Shown piece by piece: positions 6,022 to 23,023 of a DNA stretch of 46,598 bases; positions within the stretch are counted from its first letter, which is position 1, and each line of letters opens with the position of its first letter. The notes under the pieces were generated by a model. It ran no database searches, was not told the origin of the DNA, and was given only the letters and a program-made list of their open reading frames with translations. Source of the stretch: Candidatus Nanohaloarchaea archaeon (lineage in GTDB: Archaea > Nanohalarchaeota > Nanosalinia > Nanosalinales > Nanosalinaceae); contig JBDGSE010000030.1 of NCBI GenBank assembly GCA_042217695.1, positions 1 to 46,598 of the forward strand, in the 5' to 3' direction. A program made the position numbers and the translations under genes.

Positions 6022-6054
6022 AATCCTGTTCGAGCACTCTTTCATGCAAAAGAG

Positions 6055-6129
6055 CGCGGAGCCCGGGATTTGAACCCGGGTCTTCACCGTGACAGGGTGA
6101 AATGATGGGCCAGACTACACCAGCTCCGC
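6055..6129 (-). tRNA. tRNA-Asp(GUC)
   Basis: Acceptor GCGGAGC/GCTCCGC, anticodon arm TCACC-CTGTCAC-GGTGA, T arm CCGGG-TTCAAAT-CCCGG, discriminator G, CCA not encoded. Confidence 0.97.
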
Positions 6130-17954: not shown

Positions 17955-18395
17955 ATGCCATGCGAACTATGCGGATCAGAGACCGATTCTCTCAACAAGG
18001 TTAAAATCGAAGGTGCCGTCCTCAAGGTCTGCGACAGCTGCGCCGATATGGGCAACGAGGTCAAAACCTCCACCACTCGAAAAAAGAAGAAAAAGAAGTC
18101 CTCCCGGCCCCGGGACGAAAAGGTCCTGGTGGACGACTACGGCGACCGTATCAAGGAGGAAAGAGAGGACCGCGAGATGACCATGCAGGAACTCGCGGAC
18201 GAGCTAAAGGAAAAGACCTCCGTAGTGAAGAAGATAGAGAACCAGCAGTTGAAGCCGGACAAGACCCTGGCCAAGAAGTTCTCACGGGAACTAGACCTCG
18301 AGCTCTACACGGTTCCCGAGGCCTGGGACCAGGAGACAGGATCCGGCGATTCCCGGAAGGCCACTCTCGGAGATGTGGCGGACATCAAGGACTAG
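17955..18395 (+). CDS. mbf1: Archaeal multiprotein bridging factor aMBF1
   Basis: CELCG...IEGAVLKVCDSC zinc ribbon, HTH, C-terminal TLGD. Confidence 0.93.
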   Translation: MPCELCGSETDSLNKVKIEGAVLKVCDSCADMGNEVKTSTTRKKKKKKSSRPRDEKVLVDDYGDRIKEEREDREMTMQELADELKEKTSVVKKIENQQLKPDKTLAKKFSRELDLELYTVPEAWDQETGSGDSRKATLGDVADIKD

Positions 18396-18862
18396 TCGAA
18401 CTTGAACTCTCCGTCAAGCAGGAGATGTGAGGCAAGACCTATCCCCGCTGCAAGCCCTGGAACCGGTGTGAAAAGAGTGTAGGCGCTCCCAAGCACCAGC
18501 ACCGCCGTCACCATAAGACCGAAAGTTATGGAATGAGCGAAACCTCTGTGCCTCAGCCTCAGATGTGAAAAGGTGACGTAGACCAGAAGGAAAACAGCTG
18601 CAGCGGCCGAGAACCTGAGATGGATGGGCAATGGGGCGAAAAGTATCACGGACAGCGCAGTTCCAAGGCTGAGAAACGCCTTCGCCGCCCTGTGGACGTA
18701 GGAATTCTTGTGGTCTATATCCGGCAGGACGGAGCCCACTACCAGGGCTATCGATGAGGCCACCATCTCGTACACCCTGAAGTCCAGCAGACCTCTCGAA
18801 AAATAGGAGACTATCGCAGCTGCCAGGAAACCGAAAAGCACGTGTTCCGTGAAGTCACCCAT
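18392..18862 (-). CDS. Membrane metal-dependent hydrolase (YdjM-like)
   Basis: EH, GSVLPDID, HRGFAHS, SHLLLD motifs. Confidence 0.88.
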   Translation of the reverse strand: MGDFTEHVLFGFLAAAIVSYFSRGLLDFRVYEMVASSIALVVGSVLPDIDHKNSYVHRAAKAFLSLGTALSVILFAPLPIHLRFSAAAAVFLLVYVTFSHLRLRHRGFAHSITFGLMVTAVLVLGSAYTLFTPVPGLAAGIGLASHLLLDGEFKFD

Positions 18863-18885
18863 AAGAAAAGAACCGGGCCAAGAGG

Positions 18886-19176
18886 TTAAATTTGCCGGTA
18901 CTGTTCCAGGGTTTCATCGCTGAAACCGGCGGCTTCGTCCATAAGAAACCTTTCGATATCCCGGACGGCCTGGCCGGAGTCCTCGGCATACCCGGAACCC
19001 TCATCCGACTCGTAAACTATTACACCAGACCCATCACGCCTATAAGTTCTGAAACTGTACTCTCCAACAGACGCAACAAATTCAATCCGCTCAAAACTGT
19101 TTTCAAGGTCTGAAACCGGTCCAGAATTGAAATCGATGTTGTACCTGGATTTTAGCTCTTCCAGAACATCCTCCAT
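18886..19176 (-). CDS. Hypothetical protein
   Basis: Acidic ORF from MEDVLEEL (19176), TTTAAA box about 24 nt upstream. Confidence 0.7.
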   Translation of the reverse strand: MEDVLEELKSRYNIDFNSGPVSDLENSFERIEFVASVGEYSFRTYRRDGSGVIVYESDEGSGYAEDSGQAVRDIERFLMDEAAGFSDETLEQYRQI

Positions 19177-19250
19177 ACAGACTTCTTCACACCCGAGGAA
19201 TTTAAACCTGTTTCCGGGTTTCTGCCGGCCTCCATAAGCTCTCCAGACAG

Positions 19251-19631
19251 TCAGAGCTCCAGCCCGTACGCCAGCAATACAGCCGTGACGCCGCTCGCGG
19301 CCGCTGACGGTATTCCCAGCGTGGAAGGGAAAAGCGTGGGGTCTCCGAACAGCCACTGGGTGGACGCCTTCACAAGAGAGATGGAAACCGCCACGACCAG
19401 GACAAGGGCCAGCGGAGTATGTTCGTCCACCTCCTCGAGGAAATAGCTGCCGCTGAAAGCCGTGAAGAACACCACGAGTGCGGAAGCGTAGGCCCCTGCA
19501 CTTGCCAGCTGCGTTATGGAGGCGCCTGAAAACAGCTGGAGCGTGAGAGGGACACCCATGACCCACAGAGAGAACACAAGATGCGGTCTGTCCCTGTAGG
19601 CCTTGGATGAAAACTCCAGTTCCAGCGGCAT
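19251..19631 (-). CDS. Hypothetical membrane protein (about 4 TM)
   Basis: Hydrophobic segments; AT-rich box upstream. Confidence 0.7.
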   Translation of the reverse strand: MPLELEFSSKAYRDRPHLVFSLWVMGVPLTLQLFSGASITQLASAGAYASALVVFFTAFSGSYFLEEVDEHTPLALVLVVAVSISLVKASTQWLFGDPTLFPSTLGIPSAAASGVTAVLLAYGLEL

Positions 19632-19779
19632 AACTAGATTTGGTGGCCGGAATAAAAATAGACCGGCCTATATCCGGGATTCCAGGTCTTCCCTCCTGTT
19701 GCTGGCACCGGGAAAAGAAGGCACTCCCATCGTTTAACAGTAAACCCTGGCAGTTCCGGGGAAAAAAGAAGGAGAAGAT

Positions 19780-20994
19780 TTAACGGAGATGCCGCTCCAG
19801 TTCTTCCTCTTCCACCTCCCTGGTGTCGCCGGAGCGGTCCTCGAGTTCTATCTCGCCGGTCTCCAGGTAGCGGTTGCCTATCACGAGCTTTCTCCCTATC
19901 CCCAGGAGGTCGGACTCGGCGAACTGTTCCCCCACCGACATCTGGTCGTAGAGCAGCACGTCGAACTCCCCGGAAAGCCTGTCGTAGAGCTGTTCCGCTT
20001 TCTCTCTAGCGCGGTCCTCGTGCCGGGCCACGACTATGGATACCTCAAAGGCGGATACCTCCTGATTCCAGGTTATCCCCCGGGAATCATGGTTCTGCTC
20101 TATGATGGCCGCGATAAGCCGGGTGACTCCTATACCGTAGGAGGCCATCAGGACGTTCTCCTGTTCGCCGTCCGCGGTGGCAAAATCCAGGTCCATGGCC
20201 TCGCTGTAACGCGTGCCGAGTTCGAACAGGTGGCCTATCTCTATGCCACTGACCTCTTCAAGCTCTGAACCGCAGGACTCGCAACGGGAGGCTTCGAGCT
20301 CCCTGGTGCCGTACTCACACCTCCTGCATTTCATGTAGCTGTCGCTCCCGGCTTCCGATTCCGCCAGGAACTCGTGTGAACGGGATCCTCCCATCGAGCC
20401 GTTGTCCGCCTCCACGACCGAGTAATCCAGCCCCAGCCTGTCGAAGATGTTTCTGTAGACGGAGAGGAATTCGTCGTACTTTTCCCTCAGCGAGTCCCTG
20501 TCTTCGTGGAAGCTGTATGCATCCTTCATCAGGAACTCTTTCGTCCTTAAAAGGCCTTTCCTGGCGCGGTCGTCCCGGAACTTCTTCCCTATCTGGTAGA
20601 AGACCAGGTCCAGGTCGCGATAGGAACGGATGTAGTCCCTGGCGAGTTCCACCGCGGCCTCTTCATGGGTCGCTGCTATCGTGAACTGTTTTCCGTCCCT
20701 GTTCTCCAGGTGGAAGAACTCATCGCCCTCGAAGTTCTTCCAGCGACCGCTCTTCCGCCATATATCGCTGTTCTGCAGCACGTTCATCCTGACCTCCTGC
20801 GCGATGTCATCGATCTCTTCATGTATGACGGACTCGATGTTTTCCAGGACGCGGTGGCCCATGTGGGAGAACGCAAACGTGCCGGAGCCGTAGCTGTGGA
20901 CCAGCCCGGCGCGGAGCGCAAGCTCCTCGCTTTTACAGCTCGTGTCGGCCCGGGACTGCTTGGACGAGGTCACGAACAGCTCGCTGCGCCTCAC
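19780..20994 (-). CDS. proS: Proline--tRNA ligase, bacterial type, no INS editing domain, proline-free sequence
   Basis: W..SGRW, THEE, SYRDL, YQI..KFRD...GLLR..EF.MKDAYSFH, GIEIGH.F.LG..YS, YGIGVTR, anticodon-binding domain; GTG start with GAGGTG SD. Confidence 0.95.
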   Translation of the reverse strand: MRRSELFVTSSKQSRADTSCKSEELALRAGLVHSYGSGTFAFSHMGHRVLENIESVIHEEIDDIAQEVRMNVLQNSDIWRKSGRWKNFEGDEFFHLENRDGKQFTIAATHEEAAVELARDYIRSYRDLDLVFYQIGKKFRDDRARKGLLRTKEFLMKDAYSFHEDRDSLREKYDEFLSVYRNIFDRLGLDYSVVEADNGSMGGSRSHEFLAESEAGSDSYMKCRRCEYGTRELEASRCESCGSELEEVSGIEIGHLFELGTRYSEAMDLDFATADGEQENVLMASYGIGVTRLIAAIIEQNHDSRGITWNQEVSAFEVSIVVARHEDRAREKAEQLYDRLSGEFDVLLYDQMSVGEQFAESDLLGIGRKLVIGNRYLETGEIELEDRSGDTREVEEEELERHLR

Positions 20995-21270
20995 CCGAAG
21001 ACACCTCGACGAGTTCTAGAAAGGTTTTGCGTTGTTTGCAAAAGCTCCGTGATGTGGTACGCCCTCTTTTGAAACGCATCCTTCTCCGAAGAGAAGGTGT
21101 GCTCAAACTGTAACCTGTGCAGGGTACAGCGGAACGCGCCCACCTCTAGCTGTCGAATCCATAGAAATCACATCGATATGCCAACGGCTCATCAAACTGT
21201 CAAGTTCATATACGCGGAACACATTCACCGTCAAGCATAGATTAAATAATTAGTTACGCTGATACTTAAA
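20995..21270 (-). promoter_or_regulatory. proS promoter and ~245-nt structured 5' leader with uORFs
   Basis: TTTAAGTA at 21270-21263; uORFs 21238-21206, 21209-21192 and 21192-21103; C(UUCG)G hairpin 21097-21080; SD 21007-21002. Confidence 0.65.
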
Positions 21271-21353
21271 ACTTGTCATACATCCAAGACCCTCCAGAGA
21301 GTTCAATCCAGATGAACAGCTTGGTGCACGGGTTCAAGCTACGGAACTCCTTC

Positions 21354-21458
21354 TTACCCAGGGTGCCGCCTCCCGATCAGCTCAGCGGTTTTACCGGAGA
21401 ACATGCACCCGATCACGACCGCGCAGGAAAAACTGTGGAAGACGCCAGGCCCGAACAC
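21354..21458 (-). pseudogene. tdk: Thymidine kinase N-terminal remnant
   Basis: Manual translation ...AVVIGCMFSGKTAELIGRRHPG* matches the TK1 P-loop G.MFSGKT.EL; stop follows. Confidence 0.7.
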
Positions 21459-21484
21459 CTTAATTTACCGGCCTTGACGTGAAG

Positions 21485-21570
21485 CGTCGGGGGCGGGATT
21501 TGAACCCGCGTGGGCTTATCGCCCAGTAGCTTAGCAAGCTACCGCAATGACCAGGCTATGCGACCCCGAC
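21485..21570 (-). tRNA. tRNA-Ser(GCU)
   Basis: Acceptor GTCGGGG/CCCCGAC, anticodon arm GTAGC-TTGCTAA-GCTAC, long variable arm TGGGC-GATAA-GCCCA, T arm GCGGG-TTCAAAT-CCCGC. Confidence 0.97.
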
Positions 21571-21607
21571 ACGGTTACAGGTTGTCAGGCAAAAGTTTAA
21601 AATCTGC

Positions 21608-22018
21608 TCAGCTGTACCGGATCCCGGACAGCGTGTATCTGGCTTTCACCAGAGGTATCTTCAGCAGAAACCCTATAGTGGAGCGGTTGCTTTCCATGAA
21701 CGCTTCCTCCAGGGCGTCCTCGTGCCGGTTCCTGTAGTCGGTGTAGAGCGAGAGAGCCTCTTCCTTGGTGCAGCCCTCTTTTTTTTCTTCGCGGTCGCTC
21801 CTTATCTCTTCCTCCAGATCTTTCCTGTCGTCTATGAATTCTTCAGCGGTTATTTCTCCGTTCTGGTATGCTTCGGCCAGCTCGTTGAGCTCTTCCGATA
21901 CCTGGCTCCACTCTGAAGAAGTTATACGGCCTGTGCGTAGAAGAAGTATTACCAGGCGCTGTTCAGTCCTCATATAGGAGTCGACAAATCCTTTCACTAT
22001 TCTCTCTCGCAGTCTCAT
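21608..22018 (-). CDS. Hypothetical helical protein
   Basis: 136-aa ORF, SHOCT-like LAEAYQNGEITAEEF. Confidence 0.7.
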   Translation of the reverse strand: MRLRERIVKGFVDSYMRTEQRLVILLLRTGRITSSEWSQVSEELNELAEAYQNGEITAEEFIDDRKDLEEEIRSDREEKKEGCTKEEALSLYTDYRNRHEDALEEAFMESNRSTIGFLLKIPLVKARYTLSGIRYS

Positions 22019-22118
22019 CTAAAACAGTTTTAATCGAGAAAAACTTAAAATCTGCGGGTCTTTTGGCAAATTATTTAAGTTTCTGAGGAACTATTTGAGT
22101 TGTAGGAGTGGTAAATAG

Positions 22119-22391
22119 ATGGCAGAAAACATCCTCGACTTTTCTGATGTGAAGAACAAGGACGTCTTCACAGAGAAAGGGTCGTACTGCGGTAAGCTGA
22201 GAGACGTTGAAATCAACCTTGGAAAGTTTGCGGTAAGGGCTGTGGTTGTAGCGGCCGAGAAAGGTTCCTACCTGGCCCAGAAGGTCGGTGGAGCCAAGAA
22301 CGTCGTCATCCCGTACCATATGGTGGAGTCCGTGGATGATGTCATCATGATCAAGGACTTCCAGACATCGGAAGTGGATGAAGGCGAGTAA
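22119..22391 (+). CDS. PRC-barrel protein (CdpB-like)
   Basis: KDVFTEKGSYCGKLRDVEI...VVIPY..V.SV.DVIMI; GGAG SD-like upstream. Confidence 0.88.
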   Translation: MAENILDFSDVKNKDVFTEKGSYCGKLRDVEINLGKFAVRAVVVAAEKGSYLAQKVGGAKNVVIPYHMVESVDDVIMIKDFQTSEVDEGE

Positions 22392-22400
22392 TCCGGGAGC

Positions 22401-22700
22401 ATGTTTCTAGAAGCACTGCTTGGTACGGGCAGAGAAGTTGTGAGCAAGTCCTGGACTGCTGCAACTGTTCTATCCAAGTACATAGTTCTGCTGGTGGGTG
22501 CCAGGCTGGCATACGAAAGACGTCTTGATGTCGAGGACTTTCGAGAGGAGCTGCTGAAGCACTCGCGTCCCGCCATATATCTTTTCCTGGCGGCCGGGGC
22601 CGGGCTCGCCCTGACCGGCGTAACGGTTGAGCCTTTCCTGCTGTTCTTCAGTCAGCTGGCGGCACTCGGTTTTCTGGCATTCCTTTTCTGGAGTTACTGA
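22401..22700 (+). CDS. Small membrane protein
   Basis: Three hydrophobic segments, GGGAG upstream. Confidence 0.7.
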   Translation: MFLEALLGTGREVVSKSWTAATVLSKYIVLLVGARLAYERRLDVEDFREELLKHSRPAIYLFLAAGAGLALTGVTVEPFLLFFSQLAALGFLAFLFWSY

Positions 22701-23023
22701 TCCAGTCTTTTCTGGACTTCCTCGTACCAGCTGTCGAGCGCCTGGCTTGCGATCTCTCTAAGTTCGTCGATGGGGAGCGTGGTGTAAACGTAGTAAACTG
22801 TTTTATCGGTCTTGCCCTCCCGCATCACAAGGTCCTTGTCCAGCATGTCTTGCAGGGCTCTCTGGACCGTGGAACGGTTCCTGTCGACCTGGTCCGCGAG
22901 CTCCTGAACCGTCAACTGGCTGTCACGCAGTTCCTCGAAGACATCTTTTTGCAGCGAGTTAAGGTCAAAAACATCGAAAATTATCTCTCTGTCCTCCTTC
23001 CCCTCCAGATCCAAAAACTCCAT
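22694..23023 (-). CDS. TrmB-like HTH transcriptional regulator
   Basis: LTVQELADQVDRNRSTVQRALQDMLDKDLV...YYVY. Confidence 0.88.
   Translation of the reverse strand: MEFLDLEGKEDREIIFDVFDLNSLQKDVFEELRDSQLTVQELADQVDRNRSTVQRALQDMLDKDLVMREGKTDKTVYYVYTTLPIDELREIASQALDSWYEEVQKRLDQ

Follow-up and report, generated by a model that had tools for sequence, protein, structure and literature searches.

A prolyl-tRNA synthetase gene without proline codons in Nanohaloarchaea, behind a conserved leader with proline codons

Introduction

Any aminoacyl-tRNA synthetase (aaRS) requires its own product for its synthesis, a circular dependence that is usually ignored. Here we describe a gene, proS, for a prolyl-tRNA synthetase (ProRS) that contains no proline (Pro) at all, located in a stretch of 46,598 nucleotides (contig JBDGSE010000030.1, the whole of which is referred to below as the window) of the genome assembly GCA_042217695.1 of a Candidatus Nanohaloarchaea archaeon, along with a conserved leader that precedes this gene and that carries Pro codons in two putative upstream open reading frames (uORFs). 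We consider it probable that the gene encodes a backup ProRS whose synthesis does not require Pro-tRNAPro, and that it stands behind a proline-sensing leader.

The systems closest to this one have been described from different sides. Ribosome-mediated leader-peptide attenuators are represented by trpL, hisL and pheL, and by the Pro-codon leaders mgtL and mgtP of Salmonella; in bacteria, from which this knowledge comes, biosynthetic genes headed by a leader with cognate codons are classically induced by a shortage of the charged tRNA. As to protein composition, a cognate bias of amino-acid biosynthetic enzymes was reportedly described by Alves and Savageau in 2005. A further paper, in the part of its text that could be accessed, deals with such bias in biosynthetic enzymes and uses the term 'synthetases' 0 times (PMC4209129). 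As to duplicated aaRS, the accessible part of another paper presents LysU (stress), ThrRS T2 (low zinc), the drug-resistant SerRS2, and ProRSx (PMC9437257). ProRS or Nanohaloarchaeota are touched upon only in passing in two other sources (PMC9258230; bioRxiv 10.1101/2025.02.15.638363), and a literature search, with most subscription journals outside its coverage, found no description of a Pro-free ProRS or of an archaeal Pro-codon leader.

A bacterial-type ProRS without proline

The product of proS, 404 amino acids (aa) long, has 0 Pro, in a genome (757,484 bp in 44 contigs, 54.7% G+C, 82.7% completeness, with an acidic proteome) whose 608 non-overlapping open reading frames (ORFs) of at least 150 aa contain on average 4.0% Pro. 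It is the only one of the 608 with no Pro, the next lowest possessing 1 Pro in 180 aa, and the binomial probability of zero Pro in an ORF of this length is 6.6e-8. The claim of the initial annotation, of a translation devoid of Pro far beyond chance, is thus borne out, and a globally Pro-poor proteome, an alternative that it had itself raised, is ruled out by the 4.0% background. When every ORF is considered for every amino acid, the zero-Pro ORF ranks 18th of 15,120 tests, with 15 of the 17 ranked higher being Glu-poor ORFs. At codon positions 1-2 the dinucleotide CC is never seen, while it is counted 39 times each at positions 2-3 and at positions 3-1, and 144 of the 404 codons are one step away from CCN. 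The avoidance of Pro is a property of the reading frame and not of the DNA, DNA-level avoidance of CC being ruled out by these frame-specific counts. To chance, compositional drift or CC avoidance in the DNA (due to restriction sites, for example) we assign a negligible probability: only the small size of a single-gene sample speaks in its favor, while the CC counts, the 4% Pro of the proteome, the 64 homologues with zero Pro that span deep divergence, and dN/dS values of at most 0.13 (see below) all speak against it.

By score, fold and motifs, the gene product belongs to the bacterial-type ProRS, with the INS editing domain missing, and it is predicted to charge tRNAPro with proline. Pfam matches cover tRNA-synt_2b, the class II core, and HGTP, the anticodon domain, and the score for TIGR00409 (proS_fam_II), 404 bits, is above the NCBIfam cut-off of 306.7, while the scores for PRK09194 (433.8 versus a cut-off of 558) and PRK12325 (363.2 versus 550) are below theirs. 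The best solved relatives are bacterial ProRS from Pseudomonas aeruginosa (5ucm/8w8j, E 5e-90). In the alignment to these, all of the replacements of Pro motifs listed in the initial annotation are seen (WLPMG by FSHMG, LMPAVQP by RMNVLQN, VGPTHEE by IAATHEE, YKQLP by YRDLD, IRPRFG by RARKG, ILWPSALAPF by ITWNQEVSAF, and GIPHR by GIGRK), and each Pro of the P. aeruginosa enzyme that is aligned to a conserved site is substituted. Retained are motif 2 (FRDD..R..G..R..EF.MKDAYSF), THEE, GH.F.LGT.YS, motif 3 (YGIGVTR) and the anticodon-binding domain, and the catalytic columns are conserved, motifs 2 and 3 having been correctly described as recognizable. The INS domain, normally found between motifs 2 and 3, is missing, with the profile and PDB matches split at residues ~231-250, and for this reason the TIGR00409 match falls in two stretches. 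The site is occupied by a mini-insert with four cysteines (Table 1), whose conservation was measured in an alignment of 71 sequences (A2). The AlphaFold 2 (AF2) model of the 404-aa protein, built on the same alignment, has a mean predicted local distance difference test score (pLDDT) of 94.2, and its best PDB matches are bacterial ProRS; it superposes on that of Rhodopseudomonas palustris (2i4n_B; template modeling score, TM, 0.96 on the query; root-mean-square deviation 1.9 A). The Pro of motif 1, otherwise nearly invariant in class II enzymes, is N71 in this protein; the position is occupied by N in 56 and by H in 7 of 63 nanohaloarchaeal sequences, and by P in 48 of 49 haloarchaeal homologues.

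Loss of proline across the clade

The lack of Pro is not limited to one protein. Of the best 120 homologues, 64 possess 0 Pro, 7 possess 1-2, and 49, all haloarchaeal, possess 9-17; the initial annotation had considered that close homologues might show a normal Pro content, an objection that fails in view of these 64. The 71 homologues with 0-2 Pro include proteins named by their sources as from Nanohaloarchaea, Nanosalina and Nanohalobium constans, while the other 49, where named, are from Halobacteria. The homologue from Candidatus Nanohalobium constans (P0014), an organism that can be grown in co-culture, has 0 Pro. Taken together, the 25,268 residues of the 63 full-length nanohaloarchaeal homologues (55-84% identity) include 4 Pro, found at 3 alignment columns, while the 20,469 residues of the 49 haloarchaeal sister proteins include 666, distributed over 58 columns (8 conserved, 48 sporadic). 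When columns conserved to at least 85% in 136 ordinary bacterial-type ProRS representatives are considered, the nanohaloarchaeal and the haloarchaeal consensus each keep 62 of the 75 conserved non-Pro columns, while of the conserved Pro columns the former keeps 0 of 6 and the latter 6 of 6. All 12 full copies from representative genomes, plus 8 metagenome copies (5 full-length, 3 cut by contig ends), have 0 Pro. The gene is under purifying selection, four unsaturated pairs giving dN/dS values of 0.04-0.09 and a fifth a value of 0.13; in four other pairs the comparison was saturated. In the trees, the nanohaloarchaeal clade is sister to the haloarchaeal clade, and its basal members P0032 and P0044 retain the Pro of PTHEE, suggesting stepwise Pro loss. 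A plasmid search for the locus of a haloarchaeal homologue, in which the leader could be looked for, returned bacterial matches only.

The conserved columns also bear on the possibility that we are dealing with a neofunctionalised paralogue, serving another acceptor or tRNA or acting as a regulator, and lacking Pro due to a structural or other constraint. Several members are named 'aminoacyl--tRNA ligase-related protein' by NCBI, the scores are under two of the three ProRS equivalog cut-offs, the motif-1 Pro is gone, and a precedent exists in ProRSx, a ProRS paralogue with a new tRNA partner according to the part of the article that could be accessed (PMC9437257). However, the conserved ProRS columns are kept in a number equal to that in the Pro-containing sister clade, the anticodon-binding domain is present, the TIGR00409 cut-off is passed, and the tRNAs encoded next to some copies (see below) have Pro anticodons, CGG or UGG, and none that is new, making such a change of function improbable.

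Nor are the forms without INS simply Pro-poor, an explanation ruled out by two control sets, 71 other metagenome loci encoding INS-less ProRS with 11-23 Pro, and 80 genome loci, mostly alphaproteobacterial, encoding such enzymes with 12-35 Pro. The same controls make it very improbable, in our opinion, that the protein shuns Pro codons in self-protection from mistranslation, being itself an INS-less enzyme that mischarges tRNAPro with Ala or Cys. The missing INS domain would fit this scenario, as would a phage threonyl-tRNA synthetase (ThrRS) with 1 Thr that likewise is without an editing domain, but housekeeping INS-less ProRS, as these controls reveal, have normal Pro, the INS-less haloarchaeal sisters retain 9-17 Pro, and the leader with Pro codons would be left unexplained.

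A second copy with a patchy distribution

The same genome also encodes an archaeal-type ProRS (C2:9497-10942; 587 bits versus a cut-off of 437; 24 Pro in 490 aa), and so the housekeeping enzyme whose presence had been left as a question in the initial annotation is there. From sequence comparison, the Pro-free ProRS is a second, accessory copy beside it. While the archaeal-type enzyme is encoded in 57 of 70 genomes of the phylum (27 of the 28 high-quality ones), the Pro-free gene is present in 14 of 70 (7 of the 28), all 14 belonging to one family-level group, with a patchy distribution within genera. Its neighbor genes vary between loci. The archaeal-type proS is found directly downstream in two genomes (G045, G054) and within 2 kb in two others (G053, G043), and a gene for tRNA-Pro (CGG or UGG) is located 24-77 nt downstream on the same strand at 4 of the 12 loci from genomes and 4 of the 9 from metagenomes. 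The linked tRNA-Pro genes have G1:C72 and A73, an archaeal-type acceptor stem. In the assembly under study, ARAGORN recognizes 11 tRNAs only, with no tRNA-Pro among them, so that its tRNA set is incomplete. Partial, split or extra copies of the Pro-free gene are seen in several genomes (G047:C47:119-376; G061:C3, in three pieces; G055:C7; G041:C23), and one genome (G048) possesses two full copies, 96% identical, each followed by a tRNA-Pro(CGG) gene; such fragments and duplicates are indicative of gene turnover.

A distribution of this kind is also compatible with an inducible, drug-insensitive ProRS, a spare enzyme maintained against a natural ProRS inhibitor or a proline analogue produced by hosts or competitors. 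It would be free of Pro since its induction has to take place under a block of the housekeeping ProRS; the logic would be that of the backup reading, with a different trigger. Natural toxins are known to target ProRS, and resistant aaRS paralogues move horizontally, as stated in the accessible part of one report (PMC5388404), and the gene is accessory, present in only those 14 of 70 genomes and unevenly so within genera, of a foreign, bacterial type, and differently surrounded at different loci. On the other hand, an inhibitor in this habitat is not known, no resistance or biosynthetic cluster was found near the Pro-free loci, and a leader shared with proline-biosynthesis operons (see below) fits proline supply better. 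We consider this explanation unlikely, if less so than the others above, and favor proline shortage as the condition under which the backup ProRS would be needed.

A conserved leader with proline codons

Upstream of the Pro-free gene, ~250 nt are shared among 13 sequences (alignment A1), and they form a conserved leader, a new finding of this analysis, composed of a promoter, a probably leaderless uORF-A of 9-13 codons, a covarying helix (P1) and uORF-B (Table 1). Across this genome, the frequency of TATA-like hexamers is highest 21-30 nt ahead of ordinary start codons, and the TATA-like box of the leader has the same spacing from the ATG of uORF-A, which makes it probable that uORF-A is leaderless. 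In uORF-A, the consensus M-[STN]-G-[DEG]-x-[VI]-P, in which the Pro codon is invariant, precedes 2-10 variable codons; it is recognized by a regular expression at 13 of 15 loci, and one more (L017) holds a close variant. Downstream, uORF-B is found at all 17 loci for which upstream sequence is available. Its third positions vary synonymously (CCA, CCG or CCT for Pro; GGA, GGG or GGC for Gly) while the Gly, Val and Pro residues stay constant, suggesting coding constraint, and its strict core motif and the motif of its Shine-Dalgarno (SD) sequence and ATG each occur once in the window's own genome. Both uORFs are conserved in frame, with an SD or the promoter spacing in front of them, and may be translated.

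The two arms of P1, the first of which lies within uORF-A, pair in 92.3% of alignment cells, versus 77.5% in shuffled alignments, of which 0 of 500 reach the observed value, and 22-62% in slid controls. The covariation score is 0.558, versus 0.30 in the shuffles (again reached by 0 of 500), and two-sided changes are seen in 4 of the 8 pairs. Each Pro codon of the leader follows an SD-like sequence, GGTGA or GGTGG[A/G], by 6-7 nt (at 21132-21144 and 21218-21229 of the window, for example), and such a motif might hold a ribosome there. At one locus (L021 of G067, oriented copy 1196-1504), a 102-aa ORF, also with 0 Pro, follows the leader and extends into the start of proS; nothing comparable was seen at the other loci.

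Table 1. Features of the proS locus and tRNA genes of the window.
Feature	Positions	Strand	Remarks
proS, Pro-free INS-less bacterial-type ProRS paralogue (predicted)	19780..20994	minus	GTG start, 404 aa, 0 Pro
Cys4 mini-insert (C223, C226, C238, C241)	20272..20328	minus	at the INS site of long ProRS; Cys at least 90% conserved
SD-like GAGGTG, 7-nt spacer and proS GTG start	20992..21007	minus	GGTGA-type motif 6-8 nt upstream of the start codon in the majority of 13 aligned leaders
Conserved box YTCAAAAYCY between uORF-B and proS	21019..21031	minus	invariant AAAA.C columns in A1
Hairpin just past the uORF-B stop	21080..21097	minus	in many leaders, not all; sequence variable
uORF-B (putative), MDSTARGGRVPLYPAQVTV*	21103..21162	minus	invariant Pro codon; consensus ..ST.GG[R/Y/C][V/I]P..
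GTGATTTCT, SD-like sequence and spacer right before the uORF-B ATG	21163..21171	minus	nearly invariant in A1
Helix P1, 3' arm (spacer segment)	21180..21187	minus	A1 columns 129-136
uORF-A (putative), MLDGECVPRI*	21206..21238	minus	probably leaderless; codons 2-4 form the 5' arm of P1
Helix P1, 5' arm (uORF-A codons 2-4)	21225..21232	minus	covariation in A1
TATA-like box, putative leader promoter	21261..21272	minus	~28 nt before the uORF-A ATG; A/T-rich block, A1 columns 8-20
tRNA-Ser(GCT)	21484-21570	minus	just upstream of the leader promoter
tRNA-Asp(GTC)	6054-6129	minus

The leader in front of other proline genes

A pattern for the region of uORF-B, including GTGATTTCT, is found at 13 places in 12 of the 70 genomes, and the reversed control pattern at 0. 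Eleven of the 13 matches are, by coordinates, just upstream of the Pro-free proS, the gene copy there being a fragment in G047. The two remaining matches precede other genes connected to proline. One is G038 (L196, C6), in which the leader precedes the archaeal-type proS (490 aa, 21 Pro). The stretch between this leader and the gene resembles the SD and start region of the Pro-free gene, and the arrangement looks as if a Pro-free gene had been deleted from between the two. The other is G051, in which the leader precedes a fusion of proC and proB (L197 779-2332) of 517 aa with 6 Pro (239.6 bits for proC and 250.2 bits for proB, both above the cut-offs), followed by a proA-like ORF. A further example is presented by G037, in which a variant leader precedes a proC-proB fusion (501 aa, 7 Pro; L198 3621-5126, minus strand), proA (439 aa, 7 Pro, 491 bits), an ORF of 134 aa and the archaeal-type proS. 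Helix P1 recurs in the leaders of G038, G051 and G037 with different sequences (-19.0, -19.2 and -21.0 kcal/mol). As the leader heads biosynthetic operons, we infer that the genes behind it would be induced at low proline, the direction of control being suggested by analogy with bacterial leaders.

Synthetases poor in their own amino acid elsewhere

Four more Pro-free ProRS are found among representatives at 50% identity (P0126, P0150, P0197 and P0215). Of these, P0126 joins the nanohaloarchaeal clade on a long branch, and the other three are placed among bacterial sequences. One example is the bacterial family of P0150 (P0270-P0348, one member being named Gemmatimonadaceae), whose short INS-less forms have 0-11 Pro, while its INS-bearing relatives have 18-38; 41 of the 120 proteins listed have 0 Pro, and a Pro content of zero is attained in several subclades. 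An approximately unbiased (AU) test rejects the grouping of all Pro-free sequences in one clade (log-likelihood difference 272.5, p 1e-56), this group having been defined after the tree had been seen. The purge of Pro seems to have arisen convergently, in Nanohaloarchaea and in bacteria. This affects the rationale offered in the initial annotation, of a proline-auxotrophic symbiont. One part of it agrees with the data, as a proC above the cut-off is encoded by 2 of the phylum's 70 genomes and by 0 of the 28 high-quality ones, and in the genome under study (82.7% complete) proC and ornithine cyclodeaminase were not found, the only proB-like sequence being a 24-bit stretch. As a general explanation it is too narrow, since a bacterial family has been purged of Pro as well.

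Concerning carriage by viruses, a scan of viral contigs gave no relative. The matches examined from a phage collection were two ProRS with 24 and 25 Pro, located beside ftsH/lepA or mdtC in cellular-looking records, and a ThrRS. The latter, in the 636-kb uncultured phage LR756504.1 (L195 538-1698), has 1 Thr in 386 aa and is missing the N-terminal editing region; it scores 476.5 bits for TIGR00418, versus a cut-off of 383.65, and it presents a cognate-poor synthetase of another specificity.

A probable backup enzyme for proline shortage

The proposal that selection purged Pro so that the enzyme can be translated when Pro-tRNAPro is scarce, already made in the initial annotation, gains support from the comparisons above and from the Pro-codon uORFs of the leader; both the expression and the activity of the enzyme are parts of it that we infer. 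The following sequence of events can be envisaged. With all Pro stripped from the ProRS by selection, its synthesis would be independent of Pro-tRNAPro. When Pro-tRNAPro is low, ribosomes would pause on the Pro codons of uORF-A and uORF-B, and a ribosome paused on uORF-A would cover the 5' arm of P1, so that P1 would stay open, the state in which the downstream gene would be on. The Pro-free enzyme would be made despite unreadable Pro codons, and it would recharge tRNAPro, whose gene is directly downstream in many relatives. The recharged tRNAPro would in turn allow Pro-containing proteins to be translated again, the housekeeping ProRS included. The pause may be transmitted by a relay from uORF-A through P1 to uORF-B, or the paused ribosome may protect the 5' end of the mRNA.

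A number of points weigh against this interpretation. The invariant motif-1 Pro of class II enzymes is swapped for Asn or His, and catalysis and dimerisation, as well as the activity and expression of the protein as a whole, are predictions; the AF2 model is no proof of stability, as it leans on Pro-containing homologues. A bacterial-type ProRS would have to recognize an archaeal tRNAPro (the adjacent tRNAs have G1:C72 and A73), and this recognition is likewise predicted. The gene is dispensable, being absent from 56 of the 70 genomes, six of them single-contig. As to the leader, the uORFs carry 1-2 Pro codons apiece and no run of them, the P1 duplex of the window itself is weak (-13.8 kcal/mol, z -1.9), and the genome in which the leader precedes the proC-proB fusion of 517 aa has 7% contamination. 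A conserved hairpin inside uORF-B (GGUGGA/UCCACC), considered as an additional element, was rejected, with no two-sided changes in 17 distinct sequences. Likewise rejected was a mechanism as in ermC, in which a ribosome paused on one or the other leader Pro codon would unmask the SD of proS: across 13 leaders, thermodynamic masking did not alter the predicted accessibility of this SD consistently, and in 5 of the 13 a stall on uORF-A made it less accessible, which is the wrong direction. No alternative helix emerged convincingly when consensus structures were folded by RNAalifold with masked uORFs, and folding of the leaders demonstrated neither a terminator/antiterminator pair nor an SD-masking helix.

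More tentatively than for the backup role itself, we propose that cognate-free synthetases may be a general, repeatedly evolved bootstrap that restarts the decoding of one amino acid, in a cell or in a giant phage, when none of the tRNA is charged, and that the nanohaloarchaeal one may be wired to what is maybe the first leader-peptide (ribosome-pausing) amino-acid sensor described in archaea, governing a small proline regulon of the Pro-free proS, the archaeal-type proS, proCB-proA and tRNAPro. A cognate-stripped synthetase would signify that selection acts on the loop by which an aaRS depends on itself, even at the cost of the motif-1 Pro, and the clade presents a natural experiment on which 'essential' prolines are expendable in a class II synthetase. 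The leader may be an archaeal equivalent of the leader-peptide attenuation of bacteria, and the avoidance of the cognate residue may offer a rule for designing translation parts that are starvation-proof or orthogonal.

Comparison with known systems

In structure, the closest described enzyme is the INS-less ProRS of R. palustris (2i4l/2i4n), which has the same fold and the same order of domains (class IIa core followed by HGTP) and no INS. Enzymes of this type, though, are sole housekeeping enzymes with 12-35 Pro (at 80 genome loci), while the protein discussed here is a second copy with 0 Pro, lacking even the motif-1 Pro, and with a Cys4 insert. In being an extra aaRS copy beside the housekeeping enzyme, probably for a special condition, it resembles LysU, ThrRS T2 and SerRS2; among the duplicated aaRS covered in the accessible part of PMC9437257, none is described as free of the cognate residue or as having a leader with cognate codons. 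The same part of that source describes ProRSx and tRNAProA of Streptomyces, which likewise combine a bacterial ProRS duplicate with a linked tRNA gene, but the linked tRNAs in Nanohaloarchaea have Pro anticodons (CGG/UGG) and an archaeal-type acceptor stem, and nothing suggests recoding.

The leader resembles the leader-peptide attenuators in placing short ORFs with cognate codons before genes for the same amino acid, and in possessing a conserved helix that overlaps a leader ORF. It differs in its archaeal host, in the two tandem uORFs, each with one invariant Pro codon and the first probably leaderless, and in heading both aaRS and biosynthesis genes; in addition, no alternative helix, terminator or SD mask has been demonstrated. 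It also differs from T-box riboswitches: no Rfam match to a T-box or to any other element was found at 18000-23000 of the window (cmscan, E up to 1), except for the tRNA-Ser. Finally, the protein shares with the enzymes displaying cognate bias a low content of the amino acid that would be scarce, and the products of the leader-headed proCB and proA genes are also Pro-poor (6 Pro in 517 aa, 7 in 501 and 7 in 439). While the bias of those enzymes is a statistical depletion in amino-acid biosynthesis, here the loss is total, it concerns a tRNA synthetase, and it extends across a clade.

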